A stretch of DNA of 64,000 bases from Thermoplasmata archaeon (lineage in GTDB: Archaea; Thermoplasmatota; Thermoplasmata; Lutacidiplasmatales; UBA184): contig JAKAWX010000001.1 of assembly GCA_021816865.1 (NCBI GenBank), positions 40,794 to 104,793 on the forward strand, given 5' to 3'. The position numbers were made by a program, and so were the translations under genes. The stretch's first letter is position 1; each line of letters starts with the position of its first letter. Below, piece after piece: positions 12,828-59,630 of the stretch. Below the pieces are notes generated by a model. That model was not told where the DNA came from. It did not search any database and saw only the letters and a list, made by a program, of their open reading frames with translations.

Positions 12828-12843
12828 CGTCCTCTTCCTTCTC

Positions 12844-13539: not shown

Positions 13540-13540
13540 G

Positions 13541-14095: not shown

Positions 14096-14127
14096 ATTCC
14101 CCGTGCCGGTGGAAAATGCAGATGCGA

Positions 14128-14134
14128 CTATAAG
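14128..14134 (-). promoter_or_regulatory. Putative TATA box for the membrane-protein/SPFH operon
   Basis: Minus-strand CTTATAG, about 35 nt upstream of the ATG at 14095, in the 63-nt gap after the TPR gene stop. Confidence 0.3.
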
Positions 14135-14158
14135 AGCCTGCGGCCGAGGGCCGGCGGC

Positions 14159-18694: not shown

Positions 18695-18719
18695 GAGCGC
18701 TCTCCGACCGCTCCGTGCC

Positions 18720-18729
18720 GATAAATACG
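18720..18729. promoter_or_regulatory. A/T-rich TATA-like element between divergent TPR and HD genes
   Basis: GATAAATACG is centred about 30 nt upstream of the TPR ATG (18694, minus strand) and about 64 nt upstream of the HD gene GTG (18788). Confidence 0.35.
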
Positions 18730-18787
18730 TTCGGACTCGGGGGAACCGAACGCGCCGCTCTCCCGTTCGCTTATCCGTTCTCGGCGG

Positions 18788-32561: not shown

Positions 32562-34889
32562 TCAGGCCCCCTTCCACGGACGGTGCTCGGCCGCGCGGAG
32601 GTCGAGCCCGCGCAGCACGCGGTCGGGCGTGATCGGGAGCTCGTGGAACCGCACGCCGACCGCGTCGTAGAGCGCGTTTCCCACCGCGGGGAGAGTCGCG
32701 ATCAGCGGGCCCTCGCCCGCCTCCTTGGCGCCGAACGGGCCCTCGGGGTCGTCGTCGCCCACGAGGAGGATCTCGACCTTCGGCATCTGCTGGGGCATCG
32801 GGATCTTGTACTCGAGCAGGGAGGGGTTGAGGAGCCGGCTCGACCGATAGTTCATCGACTCCCCCATCACCTGACCGAGTCCCATGTGGATCGAGCCCTC
32901 GATCTGCCCCTCCACCGCGAGGCGGTTGAGCGCGCGGCCGCAATCGAACGCGGCCCAGAGGCGAGGGATCCGGTACGCCCCGGTCTCGACGTCGACGTCG
33001 ACCTCGGCGACGTACGCCGCGAACGAGTACGCGGGCGCCGTTCCCGCCCGGGCTCCCTTGAACGTCCCGCCCAGCGTCGGGGAACGGTACGACCCCGAGG
33101 CCGTGAGGGCGCCCGACGTCTCCATCGCGGCATGCAGCGCGTCGAGGAACGTCACGAAGCGGTCCGGCCGACCCCGAACGGCGATCCGTTCGTGCCCGAC
33201 CTCGAGCGATCCGGCCGGTTCCCCGAGGGTCCGGGCGGCGGCCGCGACGAGCCGGTCGCGGAGCGACTCCGCGGCCTCGCGCGCCGCGTTCCCCATCATG
33301 AACGTCACCCGGCTCGAGTAGGAGCCGAGGTCGACGGGGCTCACGTCCGAGTCGACGCGCTGGACGTGGACGCGCTCGAGGTCGACGCCCAGCACCTCGG
33401 CGACGATCGCGGCGAGGAGCGTGTTCGACCCCTGGCCGATGTCGGCCTGCATCGAGTGGACGGCGATCCCGCCGTCCATGTCGACCTTGAGGTGGACCGT
33501 CGACTGCGGCATCTTCGGCGTGAAGTGGATCGGGCTGTTCGAGCCCGAGATGTAGAACCCGCAGCCGAGGCCGACGCCCCGGCCGTAGGGCAGCCGACGG
33601 AACTTCGCGTCCCAGCCGCTGCGCTCGCGCACGGCGGTGAGGCACTTCACGAACGACGTCGACGTGATGCGGAACTGGTTGATGGTCGTCGAGTTCGGCG
33701 GGAGCGCGTTGCGCTCCCTCAGGTCGAAGGGGTCTACCCCCAACTTCTCGGCGAGCGCGTCGAGCGCGAGCTCGATCGAATAGCGGAGGTTCGTCCCCCC
33801 GTGCGCGCGCATCGCGCCGGACGGAGGCTTCGTCGTGTAGACCCGTTGGCCCTTGTAGCGGAAGTTCGGGACCCGGTAGGGACCCATCGCGAGGACCCCG
33901 TTGTAGTACGTCGTGACCGTGCCGAACGAGCTCCACGCGCCGCCGTCGATCAGCGCCTCGATGTCGTAGCCGAGGAAAGTGCCGTCCGCATCCGCCGCGA
34001 TCCGCACGTCGTTCTGGGTCGGGTGCCGACCGTGGTTCGTGTAGAACACGTCCTCGCGGTCGAAGAGGATCTTGACCGGTCGCCCGGTCTCGAGCGCGAG
34101 CGCCGCGCAGACGATCTCGTGCGGAAGGGGGTCCGACTTGCCCCCGAACCCGCCACCGACCTCGGGCTTGATCACGCGGATGCGGTGCATCGGGATCTCG
34201 AGCACTTCGGAGAGGGTGCGGTGGAGGTAGTGGGGAACCTGCGTCGCGCTCCAGACCGTGAGGCGCCCGTCGGGCGTCGCCTCCGCGACGGTCGCCATCG
34301 GTTCGGTGAAGGCGTGGGTCACACCCGCGAACCGGCCCCGGACCCGGACCGTCACGGCCGCCCTCGCGAACGCGGCGTCGACGTCCCCGAAATGCTGGAC
34401 GACCTCTTTCTGGATGTTCGAACCGAGGAGCCCGCGCGCGTGGATCGGTTCGGCGACCTTCGAGAGCCCGGACCGGGGGTCCGAGTACTCGGGCAACGGC
34501 TCGACCTTGAACCGAACGAGCGAGAGCGCCTTCTCCGCGGTGAGCTCGTCCGTCGCCGCGACCGCCGCGACGATGTCGCCGATGTACCGGGCCTTCCCGA
34601 CGGCGATCGCGGTCTCGTCGTGCGTGATGGGCAGGACCCCGAACGGGGTGGGGTACCGGTCCCCGGTAAGGACGGCGAGGACCCCCGGGAGCGCACGGGC
34701 CGCCCGCACGTCGACCGACACGAGGCGGGCGTGCGGCCACGGGCTCCGCAACAGGCGGCCGACGAGCATGCCGGGGCGCTGGATGTCGTCGGTGTACTCC
34801 GCGCGGCCGGTGACCTTGAGGGGTCCCTCGACGTACGGGATCCGCCCCCCCAGGAGGCGGTACGGCCCGGGCTCGGGCGACGACATCAT
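32562..34889 (-). CDS. Molybdopterin-binding aldehyde oxidase/xanthine dehydrogenase-family large subunit
   Basis: In-frame 775 codons of ORF 32562..35303 from the ATG at 34889 (ATGA overlap with the small-subunit stop). Motifs: VTGRAEYTDD, GGGFGGK, GAKEAGEGP. Confidence 0.9.
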   Translation of the reverse strand: MMSSPEPGPYRLLGGRIPYVEGPLKVTGRAEYTDDIQRPGMLVGRLLRSPWPHARLVSVDVRAARALPGVLAVLTGDRYPTPFGVLPITHDETAIAVGKARYIGDIVAAVAATDELTAEKALSLVRFKVEPLPEYSDPRSGLSKVAEPIHARGLLGSNIQKEVVQHFGDVDAAFARAAVTVRVRGRFAGVTHAFTEPMATVAEATPDGRLTVWSATQVPHYLHRTLSEVLEIPMHRIRVIKPEVGGGFGGKSDPLPHEIVCAALALETGRPVKILFDREDVFYTNHGRHPTQNDVRIAADADGTFLGYDIEALIDGGAWSSFGTVTTYYNGVLAMGPYRVPNFRYKGQRVYTTKPPSGAMRAHGGTNLRYSIELALDALAEKLGVDPFDLRERNALPPNSTTINQFRITSTSFVKCLTAVRERSGWDAKFRRLPYGRGVGLGCGFYISGSNSPIHFTPKMPQSTVHLKVDMDGGIAVHSMQADIGQGSNTLLAAIVAEVLGVDLERVHVQRVDSDVSPVDLGSYSSRVTFMMGNAAREAAESLRDRLVAAAARTLGEPAGSLEVGHERIAVRGRPDRFVTFLDALHAAMETSGALTASGSYRSPTLGGTFKGARAGTAPAYSFAAYVAEVDVDVETGAYRIPRLWAAFDCGRALNRLAVEGQIEGSIHMGLGQVMGESMNYRSSRLLNPSLLEYKIPMPQQMPKVEILLVGDDDPEGPFGAKEAGEGPLIATLPAVGNALYDAVGVRFHELPITPDRVLRGLDLRAAEHRPWKGA

Positions 34890-35359
34890 CCCTCCGTCCG
34901 CGCGGCGCTTTCGATCGCCTCGATGATCTTGAGGTAGCCCGTGCACCGGCACAGGTTCCCCGAGATCGCGCGTTCGATCTCGGCCCGACTGGGTCGGGGG
35001 TTCGAGCGCAGGAGCGCGGTCGCGGTCACGACGAACCCGGGGGTGCAGAAGCCGCACTGGGTCGCGCCGTGCGCCACGAAGGCAGCCTGGACGGGGTTGA
35101 GGCCGCGCGGCGGCGAGACCCCCTCGATCGTCTCCACCGAGCGGCCGTCGACGAGCCGGGCGAGCGTGAGGCAGCTCAGGGTCGGGCGGCCGTCGACGAG
35201 GACCGTGCAGCACCCGCAGGTGCCGAGGTCGCAACCCCGTTTCGTGCCCGTGAGCCGGAGGTCCTCTCGCAACAGGTCGAGAAGGACCCGGGGCGACGGG
35301 CATGGGACGTCGACCGGGTGGCCGTTCAAGCGGAAGCTAAGGAGATCTCGGGACGACAT
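34886..35359 (-). CDS. [2Fe-2S]-binding small subunit (CoxS/XdhC-iron-sulfur type)
   Basis: ORF 34886..35389; the internal ATG at 35359 (MSSRDLLSFRLNG) is preferred. Motifs: CDLGTCGCCTV, QCGFCTPG, CRCTGY. Confidence 0.9.
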   Translation of the reverse strand: MSSRDLLSFRLNGHPVDVPCPSPRVLLDLLREDLRLTGTKRGCDLGTCGCCTVLVDGRPTLSCLTLARLVDGRSVETIEGVSPPRGLNPVQAAFVAHGATQCGFCTPGFVVTATALLRSNPRPSRAEIERAISGNLCRCTGYLKIIEAIESAARTEG

Positions 35360-36182
35360 CGCCCTCCGATAGGGACGGGCGTACCTCACGCCCGTGCCCG
35401 GGTAAGGTGTTCGGGTGCGCCTCTTGGACGAGCTCGGCGACGATGCTGACCGCGATCTCGGCCGGGCTCTCCGCGCCGATGCCGAGGCCCACCGGCGAGC
35501 GGATGCGCTCGAGGGCGGAGCGTGCGAAGCCGCGATCGCGTAGGAGCCCGAAAAGATGCCCGCGCTTCGAGGCGCTCGCGATGAGCCCGATCGCGTTGGG
35601 GAACCGGTCGATCGCCCCCGCCAGGACCTCGAGGTCCTTCATGGCGTCGTACCCGAGCACGTAGAGATGGGTGAACGACGCGGGGTCGAACCGTTCCCAG
35701 AGCGCCTCGGGCTCGACAACCTCGCGCCGGTCGGCGGTGGGGAACCGGTCGTCACCGACCCAGTCGGGGCGGTCGTCGGCCACGCTATAGTCGTACTCGA
35801 GCGTCGGGAGGAGCGCGGCGAGCGCGTGGGCGACGTGGCCGCCCCCCCAGAGGAGAAGGTTCGGACGGGCGGGAACGTACTCGAGGGCGACGTCCACCGA
35901 GCCGCCGCACAGGCTCGGGAGACCGCCGTCCGTCCAGGCCTGGAGCGCGAAGTGCCGGAGATCGCCCTCCCGCAGCTCGAGGGCGGTCCGGGCGAACCGC
36001 TTCACCTCCTCGTCGAGCGCAGCACCCCCGACGGTCCCGACCGACGATCCGTCGGCCCGGACGAGCATGGACGCGCCCCGCTTCCCGGGCACCGACCCCG
36101 TCGTCCGGACGACGACGGCGCGGACGAACGGCTGGTGGGACTCGAGCAGGCGCAACGCCTCGCGGGTCTGGCGTCGGTCCAC
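35337..36182 (-). CDS. XdhC/CoxI-family molybdenum-cofactor insertion chaperone
   Basis: In-frame 281 codons of ORF 35337..36569 from the GTG at 36182, which shares 1 nt with the upstream TAG. Motifs: VVVRTTGSVPGKRGASMLV and LLLWGGGHVAHALA. Confidence 0.8.
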   Translation of the reverse strand: MDRRQTREALRLLESHQPFVRAVVVRTTGSVPGKRGASMLVRADGSSVGTVGGAALDEEVKRFARTALELREGDLRHFALQAWTDGGLPSLCGGSVDVALEYVPARPNLLLWGGGHVAHALAALLPTLEYDYSVADDRPDWVGDDRFPTADRREVVEPEALWERFDPASFTHLYVLGYDAMKDLEVLAGAIDRFPNAIGLIASASKRGHLFGLLRDRGFARSALERIRSPVGLGIGAESPAEIAVSIVAELVQEAHPNTLPGHGREVRPSLSEGDVVPRSP

Positions 36183-36790
36183 TAGAATCCCCCCCGGCTC
36201 GTCCACTCGTCCCGCGCCGCGCGGTAGCTCTCGGGGGTGTCGATGTTCGCCACGACCCCCGGGTCGTCGACCTCCACCCGGCGGATCTGGGGCCCGAACT
36301 CGGGCAGAAGGGCCCGGACCGGAGCGTCCGGCCGCAGCTCGAGAAGGTCGGGTCGGATCGAGGAGCGCCACAGGACCGGATGGCCGCCGTGCCCGCGGTA
36401 GGTCGGTATGAACCAGACGCCGAGCAGGTCGCGGCTCGCGACCGACTCGAGGCGCTCGACCGTCGTCGCGGCGACGAACGGATGGTCGACCGGCCAGAAG
36501 AGGATATCCCGCCCGGGCGGGATGGCGTTCACGCCGGCCTGGACGGAGGCGGTCCGCCCCTCGAACCACCGCTCCGCCTCGACGACCTCCACGGGGAGGC
36601 CGTGGAGCGCCCGGACCACCGGGGCGCGGTGGGCGCCGACGACGACGCTGATCGGGTCGTACCCCTCCGCGAGGCAGATCTCGGCGATCCGGCGGATCGC
36701 GCTCGTCTCCCCGACGTCCACGAGGGCCTTCGGGAGCTCCCCGAAGCGGCTCGACTCGCCGGCGGCGAGCAGGAGAGCGGCGATCGTCAT
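36182..36790 (-). CDS. MobA/MocA-like molybdenum cofactor nucleotidyltransferase
   Basis: ORF 36182..36832; the internal ATG at 36790 (MTIAALLLAAGESSRFG) is the typical N-terminus. Confidence 0.8.
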   Translation of the reverse strand: MTIAALLLAAGESSRFGELPKALVDVGETSAIRRIAEICLAEGYDPISVVVGAHRAPVVRALHGLPVEVVEAERWFEGRTASVQAGVNAIPPGRDILFWPVDHPFVAATTVERLESVASRDLLGVWFIPTYRGHGGHPVLWRSSIRPDLLELRPDAPVRALLPEFGPQIRRVEVDDPGVVANIDTPESYRAARDEWTSRGGF

Positions 36791-36987
36791 CCGGACCGGG
36801 CCCCCGGGGTCACGGGCGGCGCTCTCGGGCACGACCCTCGGTTAGTTAAGGGTCCGGTCCTGCCGTCGGGGCCGCGGGACCGCGGGCCCGGTGCGGTCGG
36901 CCTCTCGCGCGCGTTCGCCGGCGAGCGTCCTCCCCCGAGCTTCCGGGTCAGCGCTTAAATAGCACGGCCGGGTGGGCGCGCCGCCTC

Positions 36988-39071: not shown

Positions 39072-39296
39072 TTACGTTCCGCGCTTGCGCTTGACGTATC
39101 GGGTCGCGTATCCCGCGATCCGGTTCGCGAGCTTCTTATGGGTCGCCTGGAGCCTTCCGTCGACCGTCACTCCGAGGTCGGTGAGCTCGAGGACCTTCCG
39201 CTTGTTGTTGGCGAACTCCCCCGTGAACGTCTCGGGGTAGTTTCGGATCAGCTCGATCGCGACCCGTTTGATGTACGTCTGGCGGATGTTGCCCAT
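39072..39296 (-). CDS. rps17e: 30S ribosomal protein S17e
   Basis: ORF 39072..39401; conserved S17e sequence starts at the ATG at 39296 (MGNIRQTYIKRVAIELIRNYPETFT...NRIAGYATRY). The alternative start at 39401 would add a 35-aa Ala/Arg-rich extension and sits about 25 nt below a TATTTA element. Confidence 0.85.
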   Translation of the reverse strand: MGNIRQTYIKRVAIELIRNYPETFTGEFANNKRKVLELTDLGVTVDGRLQATHKKLANRIAGYATRYVKRKRGT

Positions 39297-39511
39297 GCGG
39301 GCGGGGCCGACCCGAGTCGTGGTTATAACCTTGCCGGCGACCGGACGGGCCGCGCGTCCCCGGGCGCTCGCCGGCCCGGCGGCGGGAGCGGCGGAAGCCA
39401 CAAATACCCTGCCCGAGGTAAATACCCTCGGGAGGAAGGCGGGGGGCCGTCCGGCGGGCTCCCATCTTCTGGTACCGGGGAAACCCTGACCGAGGACACG
39501 AGCGGGAACGG

Positions 39512-41017
39512 ATGACGGACGAATCGGCCGGACACCCCCTACCGCCGCGTCGCGAGCGCCACGTGCTCCTGCTCGACCTTTCGAAGAGCATGCTCGCCCC
39601 GCTCCCCGACCCCAAGGAAGAGCGGACCGAGCACCAGAAGATCGAGGTCGCGCGGACCGCCGTCTTCCGGATCCTCCAGGACGCCGTCACGTCGGGTTCC
39701 CTGTTCGGGCTCGTCACCTTCACCGAAGCGGTGCGGGTACCCGTGCCGCTCGGCGAGATCCACAAGGAGAACCTCCCGTACATCGAGAACTTGATCTCCC
39801 TCCTCGCCCCGAGCGGCCGCTCGGCGATCTGGGACGCCATCGCGGTCGGGGCCGACCTGCTCCGAATGGGCACGGACGGCGTCCGAGGCAACCTCGTCCT
39901 CGTGACCGATGGCTGGGACAATGCCTCCGCGCGGTTCGACGTGCGCCCCGGTCCGAGCGACCCCCTTCCGGAAGGTCGCGTCGACCTCGTGCCGTACGTG
40001 CTCCCCGCCAACTCCCGCCTCACGCTCCGCATCATCGGCATCGGGAGCGGGGACGAGCGCGACAAAGGCGTCGACGCCGGCCGGATGCACACCCTCCTCG
40101 ATCAGATGACCGAACGGGCGCAGACCCTCGGGCTCCCGCCGGCGTTCAGCTTCCAGGAGGTCACGACCGGCTCGGCGCTCTTCGCGCAGATGGTCCACGC
40201 GTTCGTCGACGTGGGCTACGAGGGCGACCCATCGATCACCGACCTCCACCCGGAGGAGCTCGCGCAGCACGCCGCGAGCGCGGCCCGGGCGCTGAAGGAG
40301 CCTCAGCAGCACGCGACCGTCTCGCGCATCCGCACCGGTTCGGCTCTCCCCCGCCCGGGGTCCGACGACGGCTACCACGAGGCCCCCGACCTCGAGGTCG
40401 ACGTGCTCGCCGCGTCCCCGGTCGGCCCGCCTGCGTACCTTAAAGAACGGTACGGGCCTCTCGGCGAGGTCGTGGAAGCCTACCTGGCCGGCGATTACGA
40501 CCGCGCGCTCGGACAGCTCGCCCGGTCGCAAGCGGTCCTTCCCGCCGTCACCCGGCTCTACTGGGAGGCTCGCGTCCAGTACGCCCGGCACGCGGTCGTC
40601 GAGGCCGCGCGTGCCCTCCTGGGGGCGTGGACGGAGGCCGAACGGCTGCCGCTCGCCTCCCAGTCGCCAATCCTTCGCCGTCTCGCGATGCTCCAGGCCC
40701 GGATGCAGAACGACAAGGAGACCGAGACGCTCGTCAAGTTCATCGACCACACCGAGCACGGGCTGGCGGTCGGCGAACCTGAGACCCGCGACCGACTCAT
40801 GGACCTGTTCGACCGGCTCCTCGAGCTGCGGGGGACCTACCAGCTGACGCGGATCGCGAACGAAGGGGATCTCCAGGACGCGGCGCTCAAGCACGAAGCC
40901 GCCGTCGAGGACGTGTTCGGCCGTCTCCAGGACGCCCGGCTCGACCTCGCGACGAGCGGGGCGGTCGTCGAGGGCGCCCTGGACTTCATTGAAATATGCC
41001 TCGCGGAGATGCGGTAG
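39512..41017 (+). CDS. von Willebrand factor A (vWA) domain protein with C-terminal helical/TPR-like domain
   Basis: ORF track, 501 aa. MIDAS motif VLLLDLSKSM (DxSxS), plus LVTFTEAV and LVLVTDGWDN. The C-terminal ~250 aa are helical (EAYLAGDYDRALGQLARSQ). Confidence 0.85.
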   Translation: MTDESAGHPLPPRRERHVLLLDLSKSMLAPLPDPKEERTEHQKIEVARTAVFRILQDAVTSGSLFGLVTFTEAVRVPVPLGEIHKENLPYIENLISLLAPSGRSAIWDAIAVGADLLRMGTDGVRGNLVLVTDGWDNASARFDVRPGPSDPLPEGRVDLVPYVLPANSRLTLRIIGIGSGDERDKGVDAGRMHTLLDQMTERAQTLGLPPAFSFQEVTTGSALFAQMVHAFVDVGYEGDPSITDLHPEELAQHAASAARALKEPQQHATVSRIRTGSALPRPGSDDGYHEAPDLEVDVLAASPVGPPAYLKERYGPLGEVVEAYLAGDYDRALGQLARSQAVLPAVTRLYWEARVQYARHAVVEAARALLGAWTEAERLPLASQSPILRRLAMLQARMQNDKETETLVKFIDHTEHGLAVGEPETRDRLMDLFDRLLELRGTYQLTRIANEGDLQDAALKHEAAVEDVFGRLQDARLDLATSGAVVEGALDFIEICLAEMR

Positions 41018-41028
41018 GGCGGAGTCGC

Positions 41029-42198
41029 ATGCCCGAGGTCAAGGTCACCACGAGGACCCGCCGGACGGCGGGGGCGAAGCGCGAGCCGAAGGCCCCGGCG
41101 ACCGACACCGCCCGGATCGCGGTCGTCGGGATCCCGGCGTCGGGGAAGACGACGTACTTCCGGTTCCTTTCCGGCCACTTCGGGCTCAACCTCCCCATCC
41201 TCTACGTGCCGGCGCGGGCCGATGACGGGACGCTGCCGCTCTACGGGGACCTCGAGAACGACGTCGCGCTCGAAGAGACGACGTACGAGACGACCGACCC
41301 GACCGATCCCGAAGGAAGCCTAGAGACCACGACCCGGTTCTATGTGAACCGACCGATGGAGGACCGTCGCAAGCTCTGGGTCGAGCTCTCCGCGGGCCGC
41401 GACGAGCAGGGCGTCCTGACCAAGTACCCGCTCCCGACGAAGTTCAACCAGTTCGTCGAGATGAAGATGCGCTTCCGCTACGGCGCGCCGGACGGGGAGG
41501 CCGGCTCGCGCCCGATGGAGCTGCGCACGATCGACGAGGCCGGCGGGATCATCGCCGACTACTTCACCTACGACCGGCTCTGGGTCGATTCGCCGGAAGG
41601 TGAGGTCCCGGAGAAATCCTGCCGCGTGATCCCGCATTTCGAGTCTTGGCGGCCGGACCGCCGCGACCTCTGGCGTCGCGGTCTCACCCTCCTCGGGCGA
41701 TTCGTCCACGGCGCCGACGCGATCATTCTCCTGCTCTCCCCGTCGCTCCCGTCGTTGCGCGACCAGGCCCAGCAGATCAACCTCGCCCGCGGGGTCTTCC
41801 GGTACGTCAAGAGCCGCAACCTGCCGCTCGTGATCGCGGTCTCGAAGGCCGACAAACTGAAGGAGTTCTACGGCGAGATCGAACAATCGGTCCGCGAGCG
41901 AACGTACCGGTCCGCATTCGACCCGGTCGATTTCCTGCTGCGTCGGGACGGCGCGGGGCTGGGGACGATTCTCGTCGCCCAGGAGGGTCGGGGGATCTCG
42001 ACGAGGTCGGACGTCTTTCTCGTCTCGAGCGCGGTCTCGACGGGGGAAGGCCATCCGCTCTTCGTCGCCGAGACCGGCGAGGAGGCCCCCAACGTGGGGA
42101 CCCCTACCGTGGGGATCCCCGTGATGGTGAACACGCTGCTCCCGCTCGCGCGGGCGTGCGAGCGCGTCCTCGAACGACGCCGAACCAAGGAGAACTGA
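41029..42198 (+). CDS. Divergent P-loop GTPase-like protein
   Basis: ORF 40996..42198 trimmed to the ATG at 41029 (GGAG 5 nt upstream, 11 nt after the vWA stop). G1 VVGIPASGKTT, G3 TIDEAGG, G4-like AVSKAD, possible G5 VSSAVS. About 130-aa insert between G1 and G3. Confidence 0.75.
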   Translation: MPEVKVTTRTRRTAGAKREPKAPATDTARIAVVGIPASGKTTYFRFLSGHFGLNLPILYVPARADDGTLPLYGDLENDVALEETTYETTDPTDPEGSLETTTRFYVNRPMEDRRKLWVELSAGRDEQGVLTKYPLPTKFNQFVEMKMRFRYGAPDGEAGSRPMELRTIDEAGGIIADYFTYDRLWVDSPEGEVPEKSCRVIPHFESWRPDRRDLWRRGLTLLGRFVHGADAIILLLSPSLPSLRDQAQQINLARGVFRYVKSRNLPLVIAVSKADKLKEFYGEIEQSVRERTYRSAFDPVDFLLRRDGAGLGTILVAQEGRGISTRSDVFLVSSAVSTGEGHPLFVAETGEEAPNVGTPTVGIPVMVNTLLPLARACERVLERRRTKEN

Positions 42199-42201
42199 CG
42201 G

Positions 42202-45171
42202 ATGGAGAGCCCCGCGGCGAACCTGCCCGCCGGCATCGCCCCGACCGCGGTCGTCTGGTGCCGCCAGGTCGACAACGAGGCGGAGAGCCCGGGGTACACC
42301 ACCATCCCCGAGGAGTTCCCGGGGCGCCGGGAGACGCTCGAAACGATCCGCCTGGTCGGCAACCTGACGATCAACGTCGCCGACACCCACGACTACTGGG
42401 ATCCCGACCCGGCCCAGCCGCTCTCCTACTACCCGAACCTGTTCCTCTACCCGGCCGCGAACGGCCGCTACACGTGCGTCGGACGGATGTTCTTATCGAC
42501 CGAGGACCGGCCGCGGCTCGGGATGAAGACGCTCGTCTTCCCGACGGTCGAGCTCGTCGCCAGCGGTGAGTTCGGGGCGGCCGTCCTGCGGGCCCACGCC
42601 ACCATGGGTGGCCGTTCCGGCCCGATGCGACCGACCGCGGAACCGGACGGGTCGGTCTACCAGGCCGTCGGGGAAGGTTTCCTCTTCCACCGGGGGTCGA
42701 CCGAGCCGACGGTTATCGTCGCGGCGGAACAGTGGGAGGCGGCCTCCGAGGTCGTCCTCGACCTGGTACGCCTCCTGCCGAGCGCGCTTGTCGCCCTGAG
42801 CGCGTTCCTCGTGTTCCCGTACTTCCTCCCCGAGGCGAAGGTCAACCTGCACGAGTTCACGGAGCAGCTGCCGCTCGCGCTTGCGATCATGCGGGTCCCG
42901 AAGGGGGAGGCCTACGGTGACCGCCACACGAAACGGCTCCAGAGCTGGCAGGCCGCCCCGGTCGGTCTGAGGGACCTCACGAAGCCGTCGGCCTCCCGGG
43001 CTCGGGATAACCTGCCGCTGGTGCTCCAGTACGCCCGGGACCACCTCGAGCAAAAGCTTGTGGAGGTGGCGCGACGCGTCGACCTCGTGGAAGGGAGCCG
43101 CACCCGGGGCCACCTCCACGACCCGGACCACCAGGGCGGGCGGGACCGTCGCAAGGAGATGTGGCGGATCGGGACGGCGATGGAAACGGCCGCGCTCTTG
43201 CTCGCCCGCCCGAAGGGCCGGACCGTGCCGATGACCGGCGACGCGGCGAAGCGGGCGAACGAGTACCTCCGGGCCGAACCTCCGGCGCCGCTCTCCGTTG
43301 CTCCCGAACCGCTCCCCGCGGCCGCTACGGCTTTTGCCGCCAACCAGCTCCCTCCGTGGCTGCGGAGTCCCACCGAGATCAGGGTCCCGCCCCCCGGGCC
43401 CGTCGCCGTGCCGGTTTCGGTGAGCGACGATCCGTCGGCGCGCGCCGCGCCGGCCCCCGCCGCGTCGGTACCGGCCTCATCGGAGACCTCGACGGCCCTC
43501 CGACCGTCGGCCGCCGTAACGCCGACGGCCGTTCTCCCTCCCCCCGCCTCCGCCCCGACGACGGCTTTGTTCGTCCCGTTCCGGCCCGGGCCGGCCGAGC
43601 CCGAGCCGTCCCGGCCCGTGGCCCGACCCGTCCCACCGGTCGCCGACACGGCCGAGGTGGAGGCCCGGCTCCTCGCAACCCTCGATCGCCAACTGCGCGA
43701 ATCGGCCGATCGGACCGCGCGGAGTCTCGTCGAGCTGCGCGCCGACCTGTCGAGCCGCCTCGCCGCGGTGGAGGGTCGGCCGTCGGTGAACCCGGGCGAA
43801 GTGATCGAGGCGGCCGAACGCAAGGCCCGGGAGGCCGTCGACCCGCTGGTCAACGGATTCGAGGAACGGACCAAGCAGTCCGTCCAGTCCGCCGGGGAGC
43901 GGTGGGCAGCGAGGCTGCGGGAGGAGCTCCGCCAGGGCGTCGACGAGCTGAAGGCCCAGTCGCTGCGCGCCGAGGAGGAGCTAAGGGCGGCGCTGGTCAC
44001 CCAACTCGACCTCGAGCTCGCGGAGTCCCGCGAGCAGGGGAACGCCCTGCGCGAGGCGATCGAGGAACGCGTTCGTGACCTCCTCAAGGATCGTACGACC
44101 GAGGCGGACCAGCGGCGGACGAAGGAGCTGCGCGACGTCGAACAGCGCGTCGCGATCCTCGTCGACGGCCGAACGCGTGACCTCGAGAACCGTATCAAGG
44201 CGACCGTCGCGGAACAGGAGGCGAGGCTCTTGGCGCTCTCCGATGAGCGCGCGGTGCGGGCCGAGCAGCGCTCCGCGACCGAGAGGGAAGCGCGCGTTAG
44301 CGAGCTCTCCGAGGCCCAGACCCAGGCGCTCGCGGGCCTGCAGGTCCGCATGCAGGCGTACTTCGAGCAGAAGCTGCGCGAGAACCAGGAGCGGGAGCGC
44401 GAGAAGTATGTAGAGCTCCTCGCCCGACTCAAGGTCGAGGTCGACCAGTCGCTCGCGAAGTCGATCGATTCGGCCCAGTTCGAGACCGCCGTCCGCGACC
44501 GCGTCGCCCAGGTGCTCGAACGCGCCCGCGCCGACCAGGAGAAGGTTGTGGCGTCCGGGCTCGCCGACACCGAGCTTCGCCTTCGCCAGCACCAGGAGGA
44601 GGCGGTCAGCCGCGTCGAGCGCGTCGAGGCGAAGCTCCAGCAGCGCGAGGCCGACCTCGCCCGCCTCGAGCGCAGCGTGCGGCACGAGGCCGACGACCTC
44701 GACCGGCGGCTCCAGGTGTTGAGCGACCGGATGATGCCGGTCGTCCGCAAGACCTGGCTCAAGATCTCGGAGCTCGAGAAGGGCGGAGGGTCACCCGAGG
44801 ACGGGGCGAACCGGGTCGGCGAGCTGCGACGTGAGCTCACGCGTGAGCTGCGCCGGGTCGAGGGCGAGCTCCTCGAGCAGACGAGCGAGCTACGCGACCG
44901 GCTCGAAGGCACCATCGCCCACCAGGGCCGGATCTGGCTCAACCTTCTGCGGCAGATGTCGTCCGACTCCGGAGACGGCCCCGGCTCGGCGGTCCGGACG
45001 GCGAAGAGGGGAGCCCGTCCCACCGAGGAGCTCACGGACGAGGAGTTCCTGAGCACGGACCTTAGGTCGGCGGCGGGTTACCCGGGGTTCGACGACCCGC
45101 CGAACCCTCTCAGCCCGCGAGTCGACCCCGAGCTCGACCCTCCGGCCCGCCGACGCGCCCGTCGGACCTAG
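42202..45171 (+). CDS. 989-aa protein: unassigned N-terminal globular domain + Pro/Ala linker + ~450-aa coiled coil
   Basis: ORF track. The ATG lies 3 nt after the GTPase stop. N-terminal ~330 aa are globular (VVWCRQVDNEAESPGYTTIPEEF...). Residues ~370-520 are P/A/S-rich. Residues ~520-960 are a continuous E/R/L/A-rich helical repeat. C-terminus is basic (PPARRRARRT). Confidence 0.8.
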   Translation: MESPAANLPAGIAPTAVVWCRQVDNEAESPGYTTIPEEFPGRRETLETIRLVGNLTINVADTHDYWDPDPAQPLSYYPNLFLYPAANGRYTCVGRMFLSTEDRPRLGMKTLVFPTVELVASGEFGAAVLRAHATMGGRSGPMRPTAEPDGSVYQAVGEGFLFHRGSTEPTVIVAAEQWEAASEVVLDLVRLLPSALVALSAFLVFPYFLPEAKVNLHEFTEQLPLALAIMRVPKGEAYGDRHTKRLQSWQAAPVGLRDLTKPSASRARDNLPLVLQYARDHLEQKLVEVARRVDLVEGSRTRGHLHDPDHQGGRDRRKEMWRIGTAMETAALLLARPKGRTVPMTGDAAKRANEYLRAEPPAPLSVAPEPLPAAATAFAANQLPPWLRSPTEIRVPPPGPVAVPVSVSDDPSARAAPAPAASVPASSETSTALRPSAAVTPTAVLPPPASAPTTALFVPFRPGPAEPEPSRPVARPVPPVADTAEVEARLLATLDRQLRESADRTARSLVELRADLSSRLAAVEGRPSVNPGEVIEAAERKAREAVDPLVNGFEERTKQSVQSAGERWAARLREELRQGVDELKAQSLRAEEELRAALVTQLDLELAESREQGNALREAIEERVRDLLKDRTTEADQRRTKELRDVEQRVAILVDGRTRDLENRIKATVAEQEARLLALSDERAVRAEQRSATEREARVSELSEAQTQALAGLQVRMQAYFEQKLRENQEREREKYVELLARLKVEVDQSLAKSIDSAQFETAVRDRVAQVLERARADQEKVVASGLADTELRLRQHQEEAVSRVERVEAKLQQREADLARLERSVRHEADDLDRRLQVLSDRMMPVVRKTWLKISELEKGGGSPEDGANRVGELRRELTRELRRVEGELLEQTSELRDRLEGTIAHQGRIWLNLLRQMSSDSGDGPGSAVRTAKRGARPTEELTDEEFLSTDLRSAAGYPGFDDPPNPLSPRVDPELDPPARRRARRT

Positions 45172-45227: not shown

Positions 45228-45419
45228 GTGCCCCCACCCCCCGATCACCGGCATTGCAAGGTCTGCGGTCGCGCCTGCGACGTCGGATCCGAGACGTGCA
45301 GTGCATCGTGCGCCGCGAAGCGGGCGCAGCAGCTCACGAGCCGTCGGACCTACACGTACCTCCTGTACGGCGCTATCGCACTGTTGCTGATCGTCTTCGC
45401 CAGCCGGTTCTTCGTGTAG
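45228..45419 (+). CDS. Small Zn-ribbon + single-TM protein (DUF2116-like)
   Basis: ORF track, 63 aa, GTG start. Motifs: CKVCGRAC...CSASC, then YLLYGAIALLLIVFASRFF. Confidence 0.6.
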   Translation: MPPPPDHRHCKVCGRACDVGSETCSASCAAKRAQQLTSRRTYTYLLYGAIALLLIVFASRFFV

Positions 45420-45429
45420 GAGGTCGACC

Positions 45430-46269
45430 GTGCGGCCGAAAGGACACGCCGTGCTCGGCGGCACGTTCGACCACTTCCACGTCGGACACGCGGCGCTGCT
45501 CGATGCGGCGTTCCGCGCGGGCCGGACGGTCTCGGTCGGCGTGACGACCGACCGCTACCTCGCCCTCCATCCGAAACCCGAGGCCGAGAGGCTCCAGCCG
45601 TACGCCGCCCGTGTGCGTGCGGTGCGCCGATACCTCGCCGGCCGCCACCCGACCGACCGGTTCCGCACGGTCCCCCTGGAAGACCGGTTCGGACGTTCGG
45701 TCGGGGAGGGGGTCGACCGCCTCGTCGTTTCGGTCGAGACGGTCGGGGGCGCCCGGGCCGTCAACGCCGAGCGCCGTCGCCTCGGCCGCCGGCCGCTTCC
45801 GGTGCTGGTCGTCCCGCTCGTGCTCGCCGACGACCTCGAACCGGTGAGCGCGCGACGTATCCGCGCGGGCACGATCGACCGCGACGGACGGCGCCGCTCC
45901 CCGATCCGGGTCGGTCTGCAGGTCGAGGACGCCCGGGACTCCGCGGCCGCCCGTCGTGCCGTTCGTCGCATCTTCCGATCCTCCCGGATCGATTCCGGGC
46001 CCCCCGTCCGCCCGACCGGGCGACGTTCGGCCGCGTCCCGGGCGACCCGACTGGCCAAGGCCGGGGCCGCGGGTCGCGACCTCGGTCTCGGCGTCGCGCG
46101 CGACCCGAAGGGAGGTTGGTTGCTCGCCGAGCGCTCGCGGACCCTGGCACTGGCGCCGCGACGCGTTCGGGCGGGCGGCCCCGACCGGCTCGCGCGCGCG
46201 CTCGAGGAGCTCCTGCGCCCGTCGGTCGAGCGCAACGCCTTTCCCCTCCGACGGCCCTCTCGCCGCTGA
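45430..46269 (+). CDS. Phosphopantetheine adenylyltransferase (archaeal cytidylyltransferase-fold PPAT) with ~125-aa C-terminal extension
   Basis: ORF track, 279 aa. Motifs: AVLGGTFDHFHVGHAALL, VSARRIRAGTIDRDG. The extension has no family I can name. Confidence 0.8.
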   Translation: MRPKGHAVLGGTFDHFHVGHAALLDAAFRAGRTVSVGVTTDRYLALHPKPEAERLQPYAARVRAVRRYLAGRHPTDRFRTVPLEDRFGRSVGEGVDRLVVSVETVGGARAVNAERRRLGRRPLPVLVVPLVLADDLEPVSARRIRAGTIDRDGRRRSPIRVGLQVEDARDSAAARRAVRRIFRSSRIDSGPPVRPTGRRSAASRATRLAKAGAAGRDLGLGVARDPKGGWLLAERSRTLALAPRRVRAGGPDRLARALEELLRPSVERNAFPLRRPSRR

Positions 46270-46490
46270 TGGAGACCTACCTGCGCGTCTCGTTCGGAAG
46301 CGAGGGAGCGAAGCCGTCCGCGGTCGCCGACCGCCTCCGGTCGTGCGGGTTTCTGCCGACGCAGGGGAACTACGACTTCGTCTACGACTGGCAGGGCTCG
46401 GCGACCCGGGACCAGGTCCTCGACCTCTCGGACGAGATCTCCCGGCAGCTGCGCGGCCTCCGCGTGCTGGTCGAGGTCGAGACGGTATAG
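46269..46490 (+). CDS. Small hypothetical protein (73 aa)
   Basis: In-frame part of ORF 46116..46490 from the ATG at 46269, which shares 1 nt with the PPAT stop (TGATG). Sequence: METYLRVSFGSEGAKPSAVADRLRSCGFLPTQGNYDFVYDW... Confidence 0.5.
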   Translation: METYLRVSFGSEGAKPSAVADRLRSCGFLPTQGNYDFVYDWQGSATRDQVLDLSDEISRQLRGLRVLVEVETV

Positions 46491-56398: not shown

Positions 56399-57421
56399 CT
56401 ACCGGAGCCGGGTGAGGTCCAGCGTCGCGGCGTGGAGCGGCTGGGACCCCACCCCTCGCGCGACCGCCTGACGGAGACCGAGCGGCCGGAGCGGACGGCG
56501 GGCGAGGGCGCGGTCGAGGGCTTCGTCGAACGAGAGAAGGGTGAGAGGGATCCATCGGCGGATCTCGTTCTCGCGACAAACGACCTCCGTCGCCATGCCC
56601 TCGACCAGGAACCGGGCGACGTTCGCGGGCACCTCGGTGATGAACCCGACCCAGTGCGCCGAGAGGCCGGGCGTCAGCCACGGCAGGATCACAAGTCGCG
56701 AGCGGCGGCCCAGCCGGTCGCCGACCCGGTTCAAAAGCTCGTAGTACGGCAGCACGTCCGGTCCCCCGACGTCGAACGCGCGACCGATCGTCTCGGGCAC
56801 GGTGAGGGATCGGACCAGGTAGGCGACCAGGTCGTCGAGCGCGATCGGCTGGCACCGGGTCCGGATCCACCTCGGACAGAGCATGCCCGGCAGCCGTTCG
56901 ACGAGCTGGACCAGCATCTCGAACGAGGCTCCCCCGGCCCCGACGACGATCGCCGCCCGGAACGTCGTGAGGCGGGGTCGTCCCGACGCGAGGATCCGAG
57001 CGACCTCCCGTCGGCTCTCGAGGTGCGGCGACCGCCCTGGGGTGTCGTCCCCCAACCCCCCCACGTAGACGATCCGTTCGACCCCGGCCTCGTCGGCCGC
57101 ACGGAGGAGGTTCGCCGCCGCGACCCGGTCCCGAACCGCGAACGACCCCGTCCGGTCCGAGGAACCCATCGCATGCGCGAGGTAGTAGACGGTCCGGATC
57201 CCCCGGAGCGCCGGCGGAAGGGTCGCGGGCTCGAGCAGGTCCCCGACGACCCACTCCGTTCCGGCCGGGGGCGATGCCGGAGCCCGGCCCAAGGCTCGCA
57301 CGAACCCGCGGACGCGATGCCCCTCGCGCGCGAGCTGTTCCGTGAGCGCTCGACCCACGAAACCCGTGGCCCCCACGAGGAGGAGTTCCGCGCCGCTCGT
57401 CCGGCCCATGGGACTCGCCAT
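56399..57421 (-). CDS. NAD(P)-binding NmrA/atypical SDR-family protein
   Basis: ORF track, 340 aa. LLVGATGFVGRAL Rossmann motif; epimerase/NmrA-like length. Confidence 0.8.
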   Translation of the reverse strand: MASPMGRTSGAELLLVGATGFVGRALTEQLAREGHRVRGFVRALGRAPASPPAGTEWVVGDLLEPATLPPALRGIRTVYYLAHAMGSSDRTGSFAVRDRVAAANLLRAADEAGVERIVYVGGLGDDTPGRSPHLESRREVARILASGRPRLTTFRAAIVVGAGGASFEMLVQLVERLPGMLCPRWIRTRCQPIALDDLVAYLVRSLTVPETIGRAFDVGGPDVLPYYELLNRVGDRLGRRSRLVILPWLTPGLSAHWVGFITEVPANVARFLVEGMATEVVCRENEIRRWIPLTLLSFDEALDRALARRPLRPLGLRQAVARGVGSQPLHAATLDLTRLR

Positions 57422-57599
57422 GGTCGGCGAAGGAAAATCGCGCTATAGGAAAGCGGGACCCCTACGTCGTTCCGGGGTCCCCTCGGCGCCCGGGGGCGGA
57501 GTCGCGGAGGCGAGCCAGAAACGACGCCGTATCCATCCTCCGCCGACAACCTTCATCCGACAGAAGGCCCTGCGCCTTGGTTTGACCGGTGATCGTCCC

Positions 57600-59630
57600 A
57601 TGTCGGAGAGAGCCCGGGAGTTCGTGCGGGGTCGGGCCCGGTACGTCGATGACCTGCGGTTCCCCGAGATGCTCCACCTGAGGATCGTGCGCAGCATCTA
57701 CGCCCGGGCCCGGGTGCTAGGCGTTCGCGGAGCGATCGACGGCCACGAGCTGAAGGCGATTTTGCCGGCGAGCGGCGAGGGAGCTGGATCCGGGCCCATC
57801 GGGGTGAGCGAGCCGGCCCTCGCCCAAGGAGAGGTCCAGTACTTCGGACAGGCGGTGGGCGCGGTTGTCGCCCCCACCGTCGAGAAGGCCGAGGACCTGC
57901 TCGCCTCGGTCGAGGTCGACTACGAGCCGCTGACGCCCGTGCCGGATCTGCGCGCGGCTCGGTCGTCCCCTCCGATCCATGCAACCCTTCCATCGAACGT
58001 GATGGCCGAGTACGCGCTCGGCCCGCCGTTCGAGCCGCCGGCCGCACCGCTGGTTCTCGAGGACGAGTTCCACGTCGCCCGCGTGGCCGCGAACCCCCTC
58101 GAAACGAGGGGCGCGGTGGCGCGATTCGAATCCGGCCGGCTCACCGTCCACGCTTCGACGCAGTCCGTCTTCTCGGTCCGAGCCGGGCTCGCGACCGCCC
58201 TTGGCCTCGCCCCCGAGAACGTCCGTGTCCAAGAGGCCGACACCGGGGGAGCGTTCGGGTCCAAAGGCTCCCTCTACCCCGAGCACGTCATCGCCGCCTA
58301 CGTCGCAATGAAGACCGGCCGGCCGGTGAAGTGGGTGGAGACGCGAACGGAGCATCTCACCTCCTCCCGGCACGGGCGCGGCGCCGAGGCCCGCTTGCGC
58401 CTCTACGCCGAGCGGGACGGGACGATCCGGGCCCTCGAGGGCGACGTGGCGGTCGACGGAGGAGCGTATTTTGCCGGACTGAACGCGTTCTCGCCGCGAT
58501 TCATCGGCTTCCAGCTGACCGGCCCCTACGCGATCGAACGGGCGCACGTCCGGACGAAGGCGTTCTACACCAACCGGGTTCCGCTCGGACCCTACCGGGG
58601 CGCGGGCCGGCCCGAGGCCGCGTACTTCCTCGAACGAATGCTCGACCGCCTCGGGGACGAGACCGGGCTCGACGCGCTCGAGGTCCGTCGCCGCAACGCG
58701 ACCGCCGGACCGTTCCGCTCGCCCCTCGGCCTCGAGGTGGAGGCGACCCGGCCGTTCCTCGAGGAGGCCGCTTCCGCGCTCTCGTACGATGGGCGCCCGG
58801 CACCCGGGGTCGGCTTCTCGTTCTTCGTTCTCGTCCCGGCGTTCGGACCCGGCGAGGGCGCACGGCTGAAAGTTGAGGAGGGTCGCCTCCACGTTTGGGT
58901 CGGCTCCCACGACCACGGCCAGGATCACGGAGCGTGGCTCCGAGGTCTGCTCGTATCCGAGCTCGCCGTCCCCGAGGAGTCGATCGTGCTCGAGCGCGGC
59001 GACACGGACGCCCTCGACCGGGGGGTCGGAACGTGGGGGAGCCGCTCGGCGATGGTGGGCGCGGCGGCGGTGTGGAGCGCGGCACGGAAACTGCGCGCCT
59101 CCGTCGAATCCGAGAAGGGGCTGTACGACGTCCGGTACCTGCTCGACGGCCACGGGGACGTCACCGTGTTCGAGCCGCAGACCGGTCAATCGAACGCGCT
59201 CGGTGCGAATCTCGTGTGGGCGCACGCGGCCCCTTCGGGGGCGATCGAGGTTCGCGAGGTTCGGGCGTACTACGATGTCGGTCGAGCGCTCGATCGGTCG
59301 GCGATCGAGGCGCAGGTGGTGGGAGGCACCCTTCAGGCGGTCGGACAAACGCTCGGCGAGGAGATCGCGTACGACGACGCCGGCCAGGTCCGAACGATGA
59401 GCCTGGGCGACGCGGGGGTCGTCTCCGCGGCATCCGGCGTGCCGACGGTGGTCGGGATCGCCGAGCACCCCTCCCGTCTTCCGCACGGGGCTAAGGGCGT
59501 CGGCGAGGCGCCCACGATCGGAGTCCCACCGGCACTCGTGCGGGCCATAGAGACCGACACCGGCCGACGCTGGACGGACCTTCCCCTGCGCTCCCACGAC
59601 GTCTACCTGCGGCGCCCGGCCCGGCCGTGA
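57600..59630 (+). CDS. Second molybdopterin-dependent hydroxylase large subunit (aldehyde oxidase/xanthine dehydrogenase family), no adjacent small/medium subunits
   Basis: In-frame 676 codons of ORF 57342..59630 from the ATG at 57600 (MSERAREFVRGRARYVDD). Motifs: GGAFGSKG, PYRGAGRPEA, AKGVGEAP. Confidence 0.85.
   Translation: MSERAREFVRGRARYVDDLRFPEMLHLRIVRSIYARARVLGVRGAIDGHELKAILPASGEGAGSGPIGVSEPALAQGEVQYFGQAVGAVVAPTVEKAEDLLASVEVDYEPLTPVPDLRAARSSPPIHATLPSNVMAEYALGPPFEPPAAPLVLEDEFHVARVAANPLETRGAVARFESGRLTVHASTQSVFSVRAGLATALGLAPENVRVQEADTGGAFGSKGSLYPEHVIAAYVAMKTGRPVKWVETRTEHLTSSRHGRGAEARLRLYAERDGTIRALEGDVAVDGGAYFAGLNAFSPRFIGFQLTGPYAIERAHVRTKAFYTNRVPLGPYRGAGRPEAAYFLERMLDRLGDETGLDALEVRRRNATAGPFRSPLGLEVEATRPFLEEAASALSYDGRPAPGVGFSFFVLVPAFGPGEGARLKVEEGRLHVWVGSHDHGQDHGAWLRGLLVSELAVPEESIVLERGDTDALDRGVGTWGSRSAMVGAAAVWSAARKLRASVESEKGLYDVRYLLDGHGDVTVFEPQTGQSNALGANLVWAHAAPSGAIEVREVRAYYDVGRALDRSAIEAQVVGGTLQAVGQTLGEEIAYDDAGQVRTMSLGDAGVVSAASGVPTVVGIAEHPSRLPHGAKGVGEAPTIGVPPALVRAIETDTGRRWTDLPLRSHDVYLRRPARP

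Follow-up and report, generated by a model that had tools for sequence, protein, structure and literature searches.

A conserved vWA, GTPase-like and longin-type gene triad in soil and peat Thermoplasmata: a possible GTPase-switch module

The DNA analysed here (the window) comprises 64,000 nucleotides of contig JAKAWX010000001.1 from a Thermoplasmata archaeon (assembly GCA_021816865.1). At positions 39512–45171 it carries three co-directional genes, here called the triad, which encode a von Willebrand factor A (vWA) protein (gene 1), a GTPase-like protein (gene 2) and a large protein with a globular head on a long helical stalk (gene 3). We propose that it serves as a housekeeping GTPase-switch module, passed on by vertical inheritance in a soil and peat lineage of Thermoplasmata that includes Ca. 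Lutacidiplasma. Gene 3 would be the cognate longin-type regulator or effector of the GTPase and the vWA protein a metal-dependent adaptor, a reading that we regard as about evenly poised between right and wrong. A preliminary description of the window had already proposed a tightly coupled, self-contained three-gene NTP-switch module, a view supported by the coupling of the genes and by their synteny in relatives. A small GTPase with a longin-type regulator is an already known kind of pair; what differs here is the addition of a stalk and of a vWA protein as an obligatory partner. The triad also brings two new protein families, since neither gene 2 nor gene 3 has a Pfam family.

Gene order and conservation of the triad

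All three genes lie on the plus strand, gene 1 at 39512–41017 (501 aa), gene 2 at 41029–42198 (389 aa) and gene 3 at 42202–45171 (989 aa). The stop codon of gene 1 (TAG, 41015–41017) is followed by an 11-nt spacer, GGCGGAGTCGC, which contains GGAG and leads into the ATG at 41029, and the stop codon of gene 2 (TGA, 42196–42198) is separated by the three nucleotides CGG from the gene 3 ATG at 42202. Both the coordinates and the 11-nt and 3-nt spacers agree with the preliminary description, and from these junctions we read the three genes as translationally coupled. The open reading frame (ORF) that contains gene 2 opens at 40996; ATG 41029 is the true start because the homologues of gene 2 are 386–390 aa long and begin with MPEVKVTT.

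At the G+C content of the window (~71%) spurious long ORFs are plentiful, an example being an antisense ORF of 714 aa within gene 3. The plus-strand frames of the triad have a G+C fraction at third codon positions (GC3) of ~0.90, with first- and second-position values (GC1 and GC2) that resemble those of the eIF6 and S19e genes. The antisense ORFs that overlap the triad have aberrant GC1 and GC2. Because their positional G+C values are normal and their proteins are conserved in more than 80 genomes, the plus-strand frames of the triad are real genes.

Distribution was determined with a pattern scan that looked for the head of gene 3 in a single genome from each GTDB species and identified relatives in 151 species representatives. 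Of 80 listed records, every one bears the title of a Thermoplasmata, Thermoplasmatales or Thermoplasmatota metagenome-assembled genome (from soil, peat or sediment) except for two, which bear the titles 'bacterium' (L012) and 'Methanobacteriota archaeon' (L082); Ca. Lutacidiplasma silvani is among the 80. One locus, L007, is 98% identical to the window. We then compared the proteins of the window with 86 loci by tblastn. The order vWA–GTPase–gene 3 is unchanged in every locus with enough flanking sequence, so that the neighbourhood, whose conservation in relatives the preliminary description had left to be checked, proved to be syntenic. Of these 86 loci, 85 yielded the GTPase gene and 79 the vWA gene, the misses falling at contig ends. 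In all genomes examined the triad is single-copy and its position is fixed. The earlier statement that it does not lie in an obvious island is upheld. Additionally, tblastn detected no copies of the triad in plasmid and phage sequences.

Within the main clade, tblastn identity to the window is 78–90% for the GTPase, 68–83% for the gene 3 head and 52–81% for the vWA protein. The corresponding values for neighbouring genes are 79–91% (L31e), 69–85% (S19e) and 59–76% (eIF6). Thus, the GTPase is conserved in the main clade on a par with the neighbouring ribosomal proteins. The order of the triad is also kept in four more distant clades; in distant clades identity is ~59% for the GTPase, 40–46% for the head and 41–49% for the vWA protein. 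The database names of the proteins are 'hypothetical' or a generic GTPase label, the matched records coming under the organism names Thermoplasmata archaeon or Ca. Lutacidiplasmatales, and a literature search returned no report that links DENN or longin proteins to Thermoplasmata or that describes the vWA–GTPase–gene 3 triad. This is in line with the preliminary description, which did not recognise the triad as a described archaeal system.

The proteins of the triad

The head of gene 3 (42202–43221, plus strand; aa 1–340) is the most strongly conserved part of the protein, above the stalk. Previously this N-terminal region of ~330 aa had been described without an assignment; an AlphaFold2 (AF2) model and Foldseek searches now divide it into a longin-type, an α/β and a helical lobe. 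The model, made with 20 sequences, has a predicted local distance difference test score (pLDDT) of 83.8 and a predicted template modelling score (pTM) of 0.87. Lobe 1 (aa 16–134; pLDDT mostly 85–93) follows the longin order ββαβββαα, with strands at 16–21, 31–35, 74–85, 90–99 and 105–114 and helices at 42–57, 115–120 and 124–134. Lobe 2 (aa 150–258) is of a βαβ-type α/β fold and lobe 3 (aa 273–335) is helical. The order of the lobes agrees with the published layout of the DENN module, in which a longin domain is followed by an α/β DENN domain and then a helical d-DENN domain (PMC3521125).

Three motifs of the head are invariant: W19-CRQVDNEAESP-30 (WCRQVDNEAESP) in the β1–β2 loop, G94-RMFLSTEDRPRLGMKT-110 (GRMFLSTEDRPRLGMKT) in the β4–β5 hairpin, which includes the invariant arginines R103 and R105, and F205-PYFxP-210. 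When the head model was searched against the PDB with Foldseek, the sole match below 1e-3 was 7mge_C (E=3.4e-4, prob 0.84). 7mge is the C9orf72-SMCR8-WDR41-ARF1 complex, an ARF-GAP, and chain C can be taken as a longin-DENN chain because the remaining chains (a β-propeller and a 181-aa GTPase) cannot align over 402 columns to an α/β query. Weaker matches among the top 30 include the Lokiarchaeota roadblock-longin protein 8yqg, TagF (9t0n) and 6ces_N, the last confirmed as NPRL2 by sequence match. A DENN-like nature of TagF found no confirmation in a literature check, and we treat it as a weak fold match only. As modelled, the gene 3 head looks like the longin-DENN GTPase regulators. A Foldseek search of the head against the BFVD viral structures returned nothing meaningful.

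Two resemblances of the head are leads noted by eye only. The stretch 23-ITYQVPEDF-31 of NPRL2 resembles 31-GYTTIPEEF-39 of gene 3, a similarity that hhalign did not report. The invariant FPYFxP motif resembles the DENN motif 'PFxW…IPxLP', likewise without a report from hhalign.

Gene 2 contains a G1 motif (G34-IPASGKTT-42), a G3 motif (D169-EAGG-173) and a putative G4 motif (S272-KAD-275), each invariant or nearly so among 43 homologues, with ~129 residues between G1 and G3. The three motifs and the gap of ~130 aa had been seen in the preliminary description and are upheld by the family. G4 is a variant, S272-K-A/S-D275, in which S, K and D are invariant and the Ser in place of the Asn/Thr of [NT]KxD, the motif for guanine specificity, is unusual. 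An invariant T137 (LPTK), five residues ahead of strand 142–151, is a candidate G2 assigned from its position, and S334-A335 is a candidate G5. The AF2 model of gene 2 (pLDDT 60.6, pTM 0.66) has the element order β1-α1-β2-β3-α2-β4-α3-β5-α4-β6-α5. In it, G1 follows strand 30–34, G3 ends strand 161–170 and G4 follows strand 267–272; G1, G3, G4 and the candidate G5 therefore stand after β1, β3, β5 and β6, the canonical places. Judged from the model, both its set of motifs and the order of its strands mark gene 2 as a putative GTPase of the Ras-superfamily (TRAFAC) type. The best Foldseek matches in the PDB were without exception small or assembly GTPases, namely Rab27a (prob 0.97), Nog1-type proteins, RhoA, PH1320, MglA and RABL3, all with E of at least 0.02.

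Between α1 and β2, in the position of the switch-I region, gene 2 carries an insert of ~95 aa (aa 49–141), which is acidic, conserved (DLENDVALEETTYETTDPTDPEGSLETT) and modelled as β-hairpins with low confidence. The N-terminal tail of the protein is basic. A Glu follows the Walker B Asp (D169-E170), and a Gly of DEAGG occupies the position of Gln61 in Ras, so that gene 2 lacks an in-cis catalytic Gln.

By sequence, gene 2 is an orphan family. A phmmer search of 1.84 billion representative proteins gave 14 matches, all to its own family and most of them fragments. Sub-threshold Pfam matches fall on the P-loop (AAA_18, GPN-loop ATP_bind_1, DO-GTPase2 and MMR_HSR1) and, in many members, on the β4–G4 region (GTP_EFTU, profile positions 88–151, RsgA and GPN), and a weak NCBIfam match is to EngA. 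Alignment of the family by hhalign with HRas and Arf1 matched the P-loop alone. Thus, of the earlier expectation that the G motifs would align with TRAFAC GTPases, the placement of the motifs as the fold requires holds in the model, while the profile searches stay sub-threshold. Some homologues are labelled 'GTPase SAR1 family' protein or 'SRP receptor subunit beta' in the JGI annotation. Searches of PDB sequences with gene 2, with the gene 3 head and with a gene 3 profile gave noise (an adenylate kinase P-loop, bacteriorhodopsin and an aminopeptidase).

Gene 1 matches Pfam VWA_2 over residues 18–134 (E=1.5e-7; 32.4 bits against a cutoff of 27), and its homologues in other clades likewise match VWA or VWA_2. 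The residues of the metal ion-dependent adhesion site (MIDAS) are D22, S24 and S26 (D22-L-S24-K-S26), S104 (G102-R-S104) and D133 (VTDGWDN), all invariant or at least 90% conserved among 65 homologues. The complete MIDAS of the preliminary description is therefore present, except that its downstream Thr is actually the invariant S104. The C-terminal half of the protein (~aa 230–501) is also conserved and ends in a near-invariant (A)LDFIEIxLAEMR. This half had been called TPR-like; at E ≤ 1 it has no match to TPR or any other Pfam family. A possible resemblance of gene 1, with its vWA domain and helical half, to the Sec23/24 trunk is a further idea, for which Pfam at E ≤ 1 gave no Sec23_trunk match.

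Gene 1 resembles the vWA members of the MoxR-vWA pairs (RavA-ViaA and CoxD-CoxE) and the MIDAS of midasin in having a vWA domain with a complete, invariant MIDAS in an operon with a P-loop NTPase. However, the adjoining NTPase is of the GTPase type, with GTPase-type G3 and G4 motifs, rather than an AAA+ MoxR ATPase, and profile searches of gene 2 for AAA+/MoxR gave no match beyond the P-loop. The C-terminal half of the vWA protein also differs from these systems in that it matches no known family. The MoxR-vWA parallel drawn earlier is therefore only thematic.

Behind the head, gene 3 continues with a linker (43222–43641, plus strand; aa 341–480) made up of 24% P and 21% A, in which a PPW motif (~aa 384–386) is conserved in the main clade and in relatives of 555–580 aa. 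The helical stalk (43642–45006, plus strand; aa 481–935) is rich in R, E, L and A and has 5.7% P+G. It had been described as ~450 aa of uninterrupted coiled coil. This description does not hold: the stalk is broken by six prolines (527, 531, 548, 846, 865 and 927) and by GGG at 861–863, its longest Pro-free run is 297 aa, and the heptad signal is significant only at ~785–896. Homologues of gene 3 range from 555 to 1209 aa, the length and sequence of the stalk varying between genomes. In contrast to the variable stalk, a C-terminal region of ~100 aa (…PVVRKTW…, …QGR[IL]WL…; QGRIWLNL in the window) is kept across all clades. The C-terminal tail (45007–45171, plus strand; aa 936–989) is Pro-, Arg- and Asp-rich and poorly conserved. 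Matches of gene 3 to NCBIfam GvpQ and PADLOC ZorA were rejected as compositional, since they lie in the charged stalk and far under the cutoff.

Public copies of gene 3 are often partial, with contigs that stop in the linker or stalk (L010, L012, L031, L033, L047, L058, L066 and L075). The linker and stalk region seems to break short-read assemblies, so that annotation under-represents full-length gene 3.

Proposed mechanism and alternative explanations

In the mechanism we propose, the gene 3 head would bind the GTPase as longin and longin-DENN proteins do (MglB, SRX, Ragulator, DENN, FLCN, SMCR8/C9orf72 and NPRL2) and would then act on gene 2 either as GTPase-activating protein (GAP) or as guanine nucleotide exchange factor (GEF). 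In the longin GAPs FLCN, SMCR8 and NPRL2, a GP motif and a catalytic Arg finger are found in the β1–β2 loop and β4–β5 hairpin, facing the nucleotide of the GTPase (PMC12290439); in the verified NPRL2 sequence, the β4–β5 loop includes R78. We favour a GAP over a GEF because the two most invariant motifs of the head occupy the elements that hold the GP motif and the Arg finger, because the hairpin has both R103 and R105, and because gene 2 lacks the in-cis Gln. By analogy, R103 and R105 are candidate arginine fingers. These two residues, the MIDAS and the G motifs are direct mutational targets for the predicted mechanism.

The linker and the variable-length stalk would hold the head away from the conserved C-terminal tip, and the tip would bind another partner or site. 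Gene 3 may thereby serve as a tether or ruler, and the stalk protein is probably dimeric. In a metal-dependent manner, the vWA MIDAS would clamp onto a partner's acidic loop, the acidic insert of gene 2 being one candidate, and the conserved C-terminal half of gene 1 could provide a second interface. Because its head resembles longin-DENN GTPase regulators, gene 3 is more likely to be the cognate regulator or effector of the GTPase than a passive filament for vWA docking. The module may take part in organising the membrane or envelope, in division or in positioning within the cell.

Several observations weigh against this interpretation. The DENN/longin assignment is built on one AF2 model (20 sequences) and the 7mge_C match, which has a TM score of 0.23 and a root-mean-square deviation of 18 Å; chain C of 7mge is either C9orf72 or SMCR8, both of them longin-DENN proteins. 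At E ≤ 10, 20 members of the gene 3 family have no Pfam match to DENN, uDENN, dDENN, Folliculin or C9orf72 and return coiled-coil noise alone (Syntaxin, SKA2 and COG5/6). A search of the PDB with the gene 3 profile gave no supporting match, and hhalign of the gene 3 family with human NPRL2 and C9orf72 found nothing (both query sequences were verified as full-length PDB matches, and that of NPRL2 is identical residue by residue). For gene 2, the model is only moderate (pLDDT 60.6), no Foldseek match reaches 1e-3, and scores against the GTPase models of Pfam and NCBIfam all stay below the cutoffs. Lastly, the roles given to the vWA protein and to the tip of the stalk are wholly inferential.

A stronger claim would make the head a genuine homologue of the eukaryotic and Asgard longin-DENN regulators and gene 2 its cognate, highly derived small GTPase, the whole being an essential lineage-wide machine. 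We consider this claim possible but doubtful. With a vWA/MIDAS adaptor and a long tether, the arrangement would recall, by analogy, membrane-tethering and coat machinery. Longin-DENN regulators with small GTPases are regarded as hallmarks of eukaryotic membrane traffic, and prokaryotic reports have so far come from Asgard archaea only (bioRxiv 10.1101/2020.10.19.343400). If the claim is true, a 'eukaryotic-signature' GTPase–DENN pair is present in Thermoplasmatota, outside the Asgard archaea. A structurally similar pair fixed in a euryarchaeal-type lineage would mean either that regulation of this kind has an earlier origin or a wider spread than assumed, or that it can evolve convergently. 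The conservation of the GTPase at the level of ribosomal proteins across ~150 species of uncultured archaea that are abundant in soil and peat, all under hypothetical or generic database names, suggests that the triad probably has an important cell-biological function.

[quoted passage not shown] Like the triad, it is an archaeal operon that combines a small GTPase with a longin/DENN-type protein in a predicted GTPase–regulator module. Unlike it, the triad belongs to Thermoplasmatota and has no roadblock gene, a vWA/MIDAS gene standing first instead. Its GTPase, an orphan with a ~95-aa insert, is not Rab-like by sequence, and its DENN-like head continues into a Pro/Ala linker and then a long helical stalk. 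The likeness of the head to DENN proteins is structural only and weak, and the Pfam DENN models do not match.

The eukaryotic longin-DENN GAPs (C9orf72-SMCR8-WDR41, FLCN-FNIP and the GATOR1 pair NPRL2/NPRL3; PMC12290439, PDB 7mge and 6ces) supply the best structural match of the head, a 7mge chain, with 6ces_N also listed. They share with the head as modelled the longin, α/β and helical order, invariant motifs at the GP-motif and Arg-finger elements, and a partner GTPase without its own catalytic Gln. In contrast, gene 3 has no detectable sequence similarity to them, its loop reads S-P-G rather than G-P, and the target GTPase is not Arf or Rag. Furthermore, the eukaryotic GAPs are heterodimers of two longin-DENN proteins, whereas the triad encodes one, so that a homodimer formed through the stalk would be needed. 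MglA-MglB (PMC3521125) is similar as a prokaryotic GTPase–regulator gene pair whose regulator touches the GTPase with a roadblock/longin-type fold, and MglA is among the fold matches of gene 2. However, MglAB operons are small, widespread and mobile, and MglB is a single roadblock domain of ~160 aa, whereas the regulator of the triad adds two lobes and a stalk. The triad GTPase, moreover, contains a large insert, occurs in one lineage only and has an obligatory vWA partner.

Two other explanations would give the triad a different biological role. It could be a domesticated or highly divergent relative of the bacterial DO-GTPase–GAP1 conflict systems. As such it would be a sensor, gated by NTP, against invaders or for abortive infection, in which the vWA protein forms the threshold or peptide-binding part. 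DO-GTPases are described as members of the TRAFAC class whose Walker B motif has a conserved Glu (Kaur, Burroughs, Iyer, Aravind 2020; PMC7159879), with which D169-E170-AGG of gene 2 agrees. The gene order is the same as well, the GTPase being directly followed by a partner with three globular domains (N, M and C in GAP1), and vWA genes are present in some GAP1-N2 neighbourhoods (PMC7159879). Weak Pfam matches to DO-GTPase2 occur in 11 of the 43 gene 2 homologues (best E=0.012), but in members scanned individually these cover just 14 P-loop residues (profile positions 3–16) at 11.6–12.8 bits against a cutoff of 27 (E=0.012–0.22). None of 20 gene 3 homologues matches Pfam GAP1-N1, N2, M or C at E ≤ 10, which gives no support to the GAP1-N relationship suggested earlier, and PADLOC yields noise only (a PtuA P-loop and a ZorA coiled coil). 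The described systems are mobile, variable and effector-bearing, whereas the triad is fixed, single-copy and free of effector domains, gene 2 has neither a Zn ribbon nor a transmembrane segment, and the housekeeping-level conservation of the GTPase goes with an absence of plasmid and phage copies. We therefore consider this explanation, and with it the abortive-infection option of the preliminary description, highly improbable. A ribosome-biogenesis or quality-control module, with a Nog1/EngA-like assembly GTPase and a MIDAS protein by analogy with the MIDAS of Rea1/midasin and the pre-60S GTPases, is suggested by the genomic context and by Nog1-type fold matches; it would lie beside the ribosomal protein and eIF6 genes because of its action on ribosomal subunits. 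In the main clade and L088 the triad directly follows S19e-dsDNA_bind-L31e-eIF6 and S17e, and its GTPase is conserved equally to ribosomal proteins. Roles of MoxR/midasin-vWA proteins in pre-60S assembly are established. Foldseek matches of gene 2 include pre-60S GTPase chains (prob 0.87–0.89) and PH1320, and weak profile matches include EngA (NCBIfam), MMR_HSR1 and RsgA (Pfam); however, all of these GTPase-family profile matches are sub-threshold and fall on generic G-domain elements. Because S17e, on the opposite strand, sits between eIF6 and gene 1, the triad is predicted to be a separate transcription unit. In three other clades, moreover, the intact triad has unrelated upstream neighbours (Cdc48, a NOG1 gene on the other strand, and asparagine synthase), and a longin/DENN-like head on a ~450-aa stalk has no counterpart among ribosome assembly factors. 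Taken together, this role appears improbable to us.

The remaining alternative stays closer to the regulator interpretation. Gene 3 could be mainly a cytoskeletal or tether protein whose assembly is regulated by the GTPase and the vWA protein, as in the model of the preliminary description, the GTPase gating MIDAS docking of gene 1 on a gene 3 filament and the head being neither GAP nor GEF. The long helical stalk with its significant heptad signal at 785–896, the intact MIDAS and the weak structural link of the head to DENN all fit such a protein, as does a stalk that varies in length (in proteins of 555 to 1209 aa) between two conserved ends, which is typical of spacer and tether proteins. 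However, it is the globular head and not the stalk that is most conserved, most of the stalk shows no heptad signal, and lobe 1 of the head has the longin topology, a recurrent GTPase-binding platform (PMC3521125). We judge a purely filamentous gene 3 to be unlikely. The two ideas are not exclusive, as a regulator carried on a tether fits both.

Flanking genes and other features of the window

The S17e ORF (39072–39401, minus strand, 109 aa, GTG start) is probably over-extended, with the true start likely at an ATG near 39296, because Pfam coverage sets in only at residue 36 (MGNIRQTYIKR) and the homologue in L088 has 76 aa. The divergent intergenic region between S17e and gene 1 (39297–39511) is the likely promoter region of the triad. 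It contains a 9-nt direct repeat, AAATACCCT, at 39402–39410 and 39420–39428, and a 7-bp inverted repeat, CCCGAGG/CCTCGGG, at 39412–39418 and 39426–39432 around a TAAATAC loop. These repeats (39402–39432) may be TATA-like or regulatory elements.

Downstream of gene 3, a DUF2116-like ORF (45228–45419, plus strand) encodes 63 aa with a CxxC…C…C zinc ribbon (VPPPPDHRHCKVCGRACDVGSETCSASC…) and one C-terminal transmembrane helix; it is too short for an ORF list with a minimum of 80 aa. Several clades conserve it downstream of gene 3. DUF2116 begins 4–8 nt after gene 3 in L001 and L004, and in L088 it follows gene 3 although the next gene differs. In L068, L077, L080 and L081, 1.5–3.5 kb separate gene 3 from DUF2116, which in three of these four loci stays directly upstream of the PPAT-like gene (L080 has no PPAT match). 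The DUF2116-like protein may be a fourth, membrane-anchored component of the triad, its membership being uncertain. In the distant-clade locus L087, gene 3 is followed at 11311–14331 by a Ser/Thr/Gly-rich protein of 1006 aa with a signal-anchor-like N-terminus and a C-terminal transmembrane helix. Within the available sequence this protein replaces DUF2116, and it looks like a surface protein. Further downstream in the window, a conserved ORF of ~73 aa (46269–46490, plus strand, within ORF 46116–46490) without a Pfam match lies between the PPAT-like and M50 protease genes. The arrangement is the same in L001 and L004, and a 73-aa ORF is also present in L088.

No tRNA genes and no Rfam families at the gathering threshold were found in the entire 64-kb window. 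Among its other genes is a giant ORF of 1932 aa (14159–19957, minus strand) that is dense in TPR repeats, with matches to TPR_19 (E=1.7e-54) and to many further TPR families. An 823-aa protein (21465–23936, minus strand) begins with a KaiC/RecA-type ATPase domain (E=5e-31), behind which a long C-terminal part is unassigned. Large PKD-domain proteins are encoded at 7207–10584 (minus strand) and 61477–63666 (plus strand), the second with additional Kelch and Ig-like repeats; both are probably surface proteins. The window also contains two molybdopterin hydroxylase large subunits of the xanthine dehydrogenase/CO dehydrogenase type (32562–35303, minus strand, and 57342–59630, plus strand) and XdhC and MobA-like maturation genes (35337–36832, minus strand). 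The XdhC/MobA pair lies directly upstream of the ribosomal protein cluster, as it does in L088.

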